A stretch of 5,370 bases of DNA from a virus. Lineage: Duplodnaviria > Heunggongvirae > Uroviricota > Caudoviricetes. Positions 5,017-5,042 of the stretch are shown here, piece after piece. The stretch is from IMG/VR virus record IMGVR_UViG_2534682078_000015; one strand, written 5' to 3'. Position 1 is the stretch's first letter; each line of letters starts with the position of its first letter. The notes beneath the pieces were generated by a model that saw nothing but the letters and a program-made list of their open reading frames with translations, was not told the DNA's origin and ran no database searches. Both the position numbers and the translations under genes were made by a program.

Positions 5017-5042
5017 AAAACCTGCTGTGGCAGGTTTTTTTT
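5017..5042 (+). terminator. intrinsic (rho-independent) terminator-like hairpin between the T segment and the tape measure gene
   Basis: CCTGC (5021-5025), loop TGTG, GCAGG (5030-5034), extended by AAAA (5017-5020) pairing with the following T8 run (5035-5042). It lies 10 nt after the T stop and 17 nt before the tape measure start. Confidence 0.6.

Follow-up and report, generated by a model that had tools for sequence, protein, structure and literature searches.

The closest described counterpart of the element considered here is found in the GenBank record of phage HK97 (NC_002167), where a 'putative terminator' at 8398-8422 occupies the same position and ends about 12 nt before the orthologous tape-measure gene. 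It has the same form, a 5-bp G+C core followed by eight T, and lies in a Q-dependent late operon with sister terminators before the major tail gene. Further 'putative terminator' features are annotated in that record at the portal-protease junction, after the major capsid gene and between the tail-terminator and major tail genes (6692-6719), and also between the major tail gene and G, between gp15 and H (the feature at 8398-8422), between K and I, and before J. Both this kind of element and its very position are already annotated in the HK97 genome record. The HK97 hairpin differs from the one described here in its stem (CCCGC/GCGGG) and its 6-nt loop. It also lies behind an inserted superinfection-exclusion gene that is expressed from the prophage, and is taken to be the terminator of the gp15 moron, whereas ours stands directly after gene T. 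The study of Juhala et al. in 2000, which reportedly accompanies the HK97 record, and that of Cumby et al. in 2012, said to be the gp15 paper, are both said to deal with moron elements. A moron is a cassette of promoter, gene and terminator, and gp15 is expressed from the prophage (reviewed in PMC3594210).

The terminator tR' also resembles the hairpin at the junction of genes T and H (the T/H site) in being an intrinsic terminator within a late transcription unit, with read-through that depends on Q. In lambda and the Stx phages tR' is overridden by Q and is the source of 6S RNA or StxS. It differs in lying directly after pR', where it is the regulatory switch itself, whereas the T/H site is about 19 kb further downstream. 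The 3' end at tR' has been mapped by Term-seq, and such data exist for O157 Sakai (GSE143631); the paper reports tR' only (PMC7547250). In the P22-like phage L the late operon is likewise driven from a single promoter with an antiterminator and contains predicted Rho-independent terminators, which its authors describe as common in phage late operons and of unknown role (Zaworski et al. 2020, PMC8022706). Phage L belongs to another phage group, the terminator position there is the end of the procapsid module, and its terminators too are predicted only. For terminators upstream of tape-measure genes, our search of the literature gave no specific report of mapped 3' ends or of a functional test, and it found no experimental study of internal late-operon terminators of the HK97 type.

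The stretch of DNA analysed here (the window) is 5370 bases long and shares 96-97% identity with the late (virion) region of long-tailed lambdoid prophages of enterohaemorrhagic E. coli, such as BP-4795, the PPompW prophages and many Stx1a/2a/2c-converting phages. Every gene in it lies on the + strand, and its features are as follows.

142-618, + strand: 3' end of the portal gene, holding the real portal domain
688-2073, + strand: open reading frame of 461 codons
2070-3199, + strand: head-tail connector genes
from 3196, + strand: tail-terminator-like (gpU-like) gene
3569-3589, + strand: second terminator-like hairpin, CCCGC CGCGT GCGGG followed by T6, at the U/V junction
3606-4322, + strand: major tail protein gene V, with its likely true start at ATG 3606 and not at the GTG 3537 of the ORF lister
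4328-4702, + strand: tail assembly chaperone gene G (Pfam Phage_TAC_1, 2.7e-61)
4693-4699, + strand: -1 slippery heptamer A AAA AAG, directly 5' of the G stop codon TAG (4700-4702)
4678-5007, + strand: T reading frame (-1 relative to G), predicted to be joined to G as GT by frameshifting; the annotated ORF starts at ATG 4726
5005-5007, + strand: stop codon TAA of T, 9 nt 5' of the hairpin
5017-5038, + strand: T/H hairpin, with left arm 5017-5025 (AAAACCTGC), loop 5026-5029 (TGTG) and right arm 5030-5038 (GCAGGTTTT)
5035-5042, + strand: run of eight T (U-tract), the first four of which can pair with A5017-5020
5047-5056, + strand: purine-rich ribosome-binding region (GGAGAAAGGT), 4 nt past the T-run, its motif kept in close relatives
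5059-5370, + strand, leaving the window: 5' part of tape-measure gene H (MATLRELIIKISANSQSFQ...), with its ATG at 5059-5061

The gene identities assumed in the first-pass annotation proved correct, as did its placing of a terminator-shaped hairpin within a co-oriented tail operon directly upstream of the tape-measure gene. Besides the match to Phage_TAC_1 in G, the frame at 4726-5007 matches Phage_tail_T (4.6e-19), and the H orthologue is labelled 'tail tape measure protein' in BP-4795 and in E. coli genomes; over its first 100 nt H is 78% identical to that of HK97 at the nucleotide level. A textbook site of programmed -1 frameshifting is predicted to yield the G/GT chaperone pair. The GTG 3537 start listed for the major tail gene is probably wrong. 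Some oddities of annotation and sequence were seen upstream. The open reading frame at 688-2073 bears the label 'portal protein' in the BP-4795 and PPompW records, which looks carried over; it gave no Phage_portal match in Pfam, only scattered weak hits below threshold. Relative to BP-4795, the tail-terminator gene of the window has one base more near 3261 (TATGTCGGTCC against TATGT-GGTCC) and one fewer near 3459 (CCCCGG where BP-4795 has CCCCGGG), and these two indels put about 200 nt out of frame and account for the stop of the ORF at 3438. This may be a defective prophage copy, or the sequence may contain two errors. A T-rich insertion of 7 nt at about 3543-3550 also separates the window from BP-4795.

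The T/H hairpin is contained in the 51-nt gap between the TAA of T and the ATG of H, outside coding sequence and downstream of a stop codon. Its G+C core consists of 5 bp (CCTGC/GCAGG, 5021-5034), with four G-C pairs and one U-A pair, and ends 24 nt 5' of the H start. The stem stretches to 9-10 bp through A-U and G-U pairs, and only GCCC and the purine-rich ribosome-binding stretch separate the T-run from the ATG. The 9-bp stem, 4-nt loop and eight T reported in the first-pass annotation are all present, but four of the T's were counted twice: two mutually exclusive forms can be drawn, a 9-bp stem with T4 or a 5-bp core with T8. The form relevant to termination is the 5-bp core followed by U8. 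Folding of 5008-5050 on the + strand (RNAfold) gave -12.5 kcal/mol with z = -2.4, and 4 of 200 dinucleotide shuffles folded equally well. This makes it a moderate hairpin, not an exceptionally strong one, and the earlier description of a 'strong' hairpin was overstated for a 5-bp G+C core. The G+C-rich stem falls within the range of intrinsic terminators (about 4-18 bp, with a loop of 3-8 nt), and the U-tract lies directly 3' of it on the transcribed strand. Retroregulators of the lambda sib type depend on RNase III, which acts on a double-stranded stem of about 20 bp or more. Such an element was rejected here, where the stem reaches at most 10 bp. A scan of the whole window against Rfam 15 gave no match at E <= 1.

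To count such elements we defined a strict terminator as having at least 5 pairs, of which at least 4 are G-C, a loop of 3-8 nt and at least 6 T in the next 8 nt. The window contains two strict terminators on the + strand and none on the - strand. Shuffling that preserved dinucleotides (200 shuffles) gave a mean of 0.06 strict sites, and two or more sites in one shuffle of the 200. A consensus promoter and terminator scanner listed the T/H hairpin on the - strand only. This is an artefact of its longest-stem rule, which uses up the four + strand T's that pair in the longer stem. The same scanner also missed the + strand T/H terminator in L053, a related locus considered below. It found no promoter-like site on the + strand of the window.

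The junction was compared with phage records by a sensitive BLAST search, and the matches fell into three tiers. In EHEC phages the whole junction was matched; in PhiR49_2, Serratia OS31 and Klebsiella and Aeromonas phages the match began at the hairpin; and in HK97-like phages it began at the start of H. A mosaic breakpoint at the hairpin was considered and rejected, since the T proteins are still clearly homologous and the pattern amounts to a difference in conservation, not a demonstrated crossover. Hairpins at or equivalent to the T/H position have the following left arms, loops, right arms and T-runs.

YYZ-2008, T/H: CCGC, loop TGAG, GCGG, T7
PhiR49_2, T/H: CCGC, loop TTCG, GCGG, T8
Serratia OS31, T/H: CCCGC, loop TTAG, GCGGG, T7
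HK97, before H: CCCGC, loop TATCAA, GCGGG, T8
Klebsiella Kp4872-1, T/H: CCCAC, loop AAT, GTGGG, T8
Aeromonas AsXd-1, T/H: GCCCG, loop TTGA, TGGGC, T9

No hairpin was found at T/H in Vibrio phage Pm34. In lambda T and H overlap and there is no T/H terminator, and HK022 has a 19-nt T/H gap without a hairpin.

A wider sample consisted of 80 close IMG/VR relatives, retrieved with the N-terminus of H, and 69 further loci from bacterial assemblies (one genome per species), retrieved with eight aligned H N-termini. In 74 of 97 distinct upstream sequences a strict terminator was present, its core ending no more than 45 nt short of the H start (like those that follow, a raw count, uncorrected for shared ancestry). 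Elsewhere in these loci, which total 488 kb, 112 sites were found on the + strand, or 0.0103 per 45-nt window, and 46 on the - strand. The 74 sites, spread over many genera, have 22 distinct G+C cores that are always complementary, and in relatives the core lies 17-26 nt from the H start. The window itself conforms, its terminator preceding an HK97-type tape-measure gene (N-terminus MATLRELIIKISANS...) by no more than about 30 nt. The 8 nt 3' of the core contain on average 7.2 T in the relatives and the 8 nt 5' of it 4.3 A, and it is this asymmetry, that of a + strand terminator, which the relatives conserve, and not a palindrome. With flanks that are about 95% identical, the window (CCTGC/GCAGG) and the YYZ-2008 type (CCGC/GCGG) differ by the joint loss of the two bases of one pair. 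Intermediates with U-G pairs, which form in the + strand RNA only, occur in L091 (CCTGC/GCGGG) and L094 (CCTGT/GCAGG). RNAalifold, applied to a MAFFT alignment of 12 close relatives, recovered only four pairs with no double changes; as MAFFT had misaligned the paired indel, this does not count against the pairing. The many complementary cores, the paired loss and the U-G intermediates indicate a structure maintained by selection, and the comparison as a whole argues for a bona fide, selected element of the intrinsic-terminator type on the + strand. Three enterobacterial-type tape-measure loci in the sample (L095, L098 and L116) came from assemblies labelled Microvirga antarctica (a 287-nt contig), Pseudomonas lundensis and Martelella alba, which may reflect contamination or mislabelling rather than true hosts.

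The other strict terminator of the window, at 3569-3589, ends 16 nt before the V start and is followed by AGGAGG at 3596-3601 and the ATG at 3606. A weaker hairpin at 3527-3543 overlaps the end of the gene upstream of V. At the equivalent distance from V, 81 of 86 related loci have a strict terminator, among them all 23 that are without one at T/H, so that the U/V terminator is the more conserved of the two. Terminators that stand alone are the rule at U/V, where most loci have no room for an inserted gene. In the window and in most relatives the two hairpins bracket the V-G-T block. In BP-4795, a strict scan of + strand intergenic sequence from Q to the tail fibres found terminators after Q (tR'-like), after the stx region, between terL and the major capsid gene, between the tail-terminator and major tail genes, and at T/H, I/J, J/lom and lom/stf. 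This phage, 96% identical over the window, encodes Q and then the tR'-like terminator; Q itself lies outside the window. Lambda has strict intergenic sites only at D/E (6101-6114), J/lom and lom/stf. Its D/E hairpin (GCCGC CTGT GCGGC followed by T7; L162 in our set) lies 20 nt before the start of the major capsid gene, and the layout of hairpin, T-run, ribosome-binding site and start codon is common to this site, to the major capsid gene of BP-4795 and to HK97-type major tail genes. The T/H hairpin would, on these comparisons, be one of a series of intergenic terminators in an HK97-type, Q-dependent late operon.

The distance between T and H varies widely among relatives. Homologues of T were placed by tblastn and the T-to-H distance was measured in 86 distinct loci with enough flank. 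Where H follows T directly (gap of at most 60 nt), 27 loci have a strict terminator and 21 do not (27/48), whereas 35 of the 37 loci with 280-1700 nt of extra DNA have one and two do not. One more locus has a terminator, and its T homologue could not be placed. Three states of the junction may be distinguished: no terminator (lambda, HK022 and Proteus types), a terminator alone (the window), and a low-GC gene followed by a terminator. With close relatives in each state, the junction offers a clean natural experiment. Insert-free junctions with a terminator have gaps of 32-52 nt, and the window, Serratia, Enterobacter, Kosakonia and Kluyvera types are among them; those without one have gaps of 9-35 nt and include Proteus, Morganella, Providencia, Xenorhabdus and some Pantoea types. 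Of the latter, four loci (L115, L121, L122 and L146) have kept the G+C hairpin with a decayed T-run. Inserts were found at the following positions, and in others.

L053: 2024-2437
L069: 2102-2443
L091: 1945-2463
L106: 2033-2437
L128: 2119-2451
L134: 1557-2447
L139: 1987-2439

The inserts have a GC content of 26-43%, against 44-59% in the adjacent H, and always lie upstream of the terminator. Their products are small, and most have an N-terminal signal sequence of lipoprotein type or hydrophobic membrane segments. The PHROG families represented number at least eight, none with a known function, and include that of HK97 gp15 and YebO-like proteins. Among the products are small lipoproteins, membrane proteins that resemble gp15 and YebO or carry a zinc ribbon, and a TPR protein. 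L053 agrees with the window in core, T8 run and downstream sequence, and in it a lipoprotein gene of 137 codons separates T from the hairpin. Serratia OS31, without an insert, and HK97, with gp15, likewise have CCCGC/GCGGG in common, followed by TTTTTTTATGGGTGAAA. In HK97-type tail modules T/H is a hotspot at which unrelated low-GC genes are inserted. To that extent the suggestion in the first-pass annotation of a recombination joint between tail modules found support; given the homology of the T proteins, a crossover at the hairpin itself was not demonstrated. The inserted genes are candidates for superinfection exclusion or defence, and the junction is a predictable place in which to seek further prophage-expressed genes of this kind. 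That the inserts have promoters of their own is assumed from the precedent of HK97. Upstream of the inserted gene of L053 the consensus promoter scan gave no + strand match.

The terminator of the window sits where a moron terminator would be expected, at a junction that hosts many moron families. The window differs in having no extra gene or promoter between T and H: the 51-nt gap contains neither an inserted gene nor an open reading frame, and no sigma-70 promoter was found upstream in the promoter scan. A downstream terminator is the sole feature of a moron that is present, and the locus is not a moron. This suggests that the terminator can exist independently of the moron cassette. What is added here to the HK97 annotation is a terminator independent of a moron, three natural states of the junction, and an insertion hotspot for small envelope-protein genes.

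As to function, we tentatively favour the possibility that the T/H terminator acts mainly as a conditional barrier that Q-modified polymerase reads through, a model that may well be right but to which we would not commit ourselves. RNA polymerase without the Q modification would stop at T/H and so be kept out of the tape-measure and distal tail genes. Such polymerase could come from the promoters of inserts expressed in the lysogen, or from stray initiation within the prophage. During lytic growth, Q-modified polymerase from pR' would read through. Slight residual termination, and shielding of the V-G-T mRNA at its 3' end, would be probable side effects and not the primary function. The conserved U-tract points to selection for real termination, beyond that for a stable hairpin, and the near-obligatory presence of a terminator 3' of the low-GC inserts fits a barrier against polymerase that started within the insert. 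Against it, the window has no promoter-bearing insert, and what the barrier would stop there is hypothetical; in that lineage the terminator might provide general insulation, form a boundary for the next insertion, or be a leftover. The terminator is also dispensable, as its absence from 21 insert-free relatives, lambda and HK022 makes clear, and for the silencing of stray transcripts that are not translated, Rho and H-NS could already be enough. A barrier, attenuation, a relic and mRNA stabilisation are not mutually exclusive.

A broader proposal, possible although we consider it rather doubtful, is that the T/H terminator is resident punctuation of the HK97-type late operon and not a property of morons. 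Together with the U/V terminator it would bracket V-G-T, and it would offer inserts a ready downstream boundary. If this is true, a promoter and gene fragment landing upstream of the T/H terminator would become a safe, self-contained unit expressed in the lysogen, and the presence of at least eight unrelated gene families at T/H would be explained. It would also revise the textbook view of HK97 gp15, the moron described first, in which it is a mobile cassette of promoter, gene and terminator.

The first-pass annotation had suggested that the hairpin could attenuate transcription under late-gene antitermination. Even Q-modified polymerase would then terminate at a low and useful rate, leaving less mRNA for H, M, L, K, I and J. 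The products of these genes are needed at few copies per virion, unlike the major tail protein and G, and the site lies after V and G, whose products are abundant, and before H. The T-run, which actual termination requires, is conserved, serial terminators along the operon would add up, and attenuation is one possibility that has been proposed for such terminators (PMC8022706). As the main function it is nevertheless unlikely, and pure attenuation fits poorly with the equivalent, more conserved terminator directly before the gene of the most abundant tail protein, both in the window and in the 81 loci noted above. Terminators are also found in front of the major capsid gene in both BP-4795 and lambda, where they would oppose an abundant product, and their presence before major tail and major capsid genes argues against downstream attenuation as a general purpose. 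Lambda, HK022 and the 21 related loci reach the same virion stoichiometry without a T/H terminator.

The terminator might instead be a relic: it would have come in as the 3' end of a moron which then lost its promoter and gene, and would now be a functionless mark of a mosaic joint. We regard this as distinctly unlikely. A functionless element of 25 nt should decay quickly. The decayed T-runs of the four insert-free loci speak for a relic, but in 27 distinct insert-free loci of several genera a full canonical terminator persists, packed into a short gap, with stems that are diverse and compensated. The strong association of terminators with inserts, the annotation of the HK97 copy as the terminator of the gp15 moron and the identity of terminators with and without inserts would all be in keeping with such an origin. 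The stand-alone terminators that are the rule at U/V would not.

Stabilisation of the upstream mRNA, also raised in the first-pass annotation, would make the hairpin a shield for the 3' end of V-G-T against exonucleases or a processing boundary which, with the U/V hairpin, defines a discrete, long-lived mRNA of about 1.45 kb for the abundant tail proteins. The flanking of V-G-T by two hairpins in the window and in most relatives agrees with this, as do the hairpins annotated in HK97 on either side of the major capsid and major tail genes. We find it quite improbable as the main role, since a stabiliser does not need a U-tract and the T-run is the most conserved feature of the site, which weakens any model of pure stabilisation; for these phages neither processing sites nor discrete transcripts are on record. 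It is extremely improbable that the hairpin is a chance palindrome or a - strand element (an antisense terminator or a protein-binding DNA palindrome): the A4 tract lends it a symmetrical look, the scanner placed it on the - strand and it folds there at -11.4 kcal/mol, but the - strand tail (UUUUCAUCAUUAUU) is a poor U-tract, the window has no strict - strand terminator, relatives conserve the downstream T-run and not the upstream A-tract, their U-G pairs would be A-C mismatches on the - strand, the varied stem sequence argues against a sequence-specific protein site, and the enrichment at this position is about 70-fold over background.

We also considered whether a known small RNA might end at the T/H hairpin. 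The Hfq-binding RNA HnrS (EcOnc10-12) is encoded by prophages, is 66 nt long with an intrinsic terminator, and is placed 'within the late genes' of Sakai Sp9/10/12; the preprint and the published version give neither its coordinates nor its sequence. Its ending at T/H is unsupported: no promoter-like site lies upstream of the hairpin, and Sakai has three copies of HnrS, against five copies of the junction in a sampled O157:H7 genome.

Of 5426 complete E. coli genomes, 1245 carry this exact T/H junction, some as many as seven times, mostly in O157-type and other Shiga-toxin prophages. If the terminator makes expression of the tail genes depend on Q, it would help to silence these prophages and to set the yield of toxin-carrying virions after induction.
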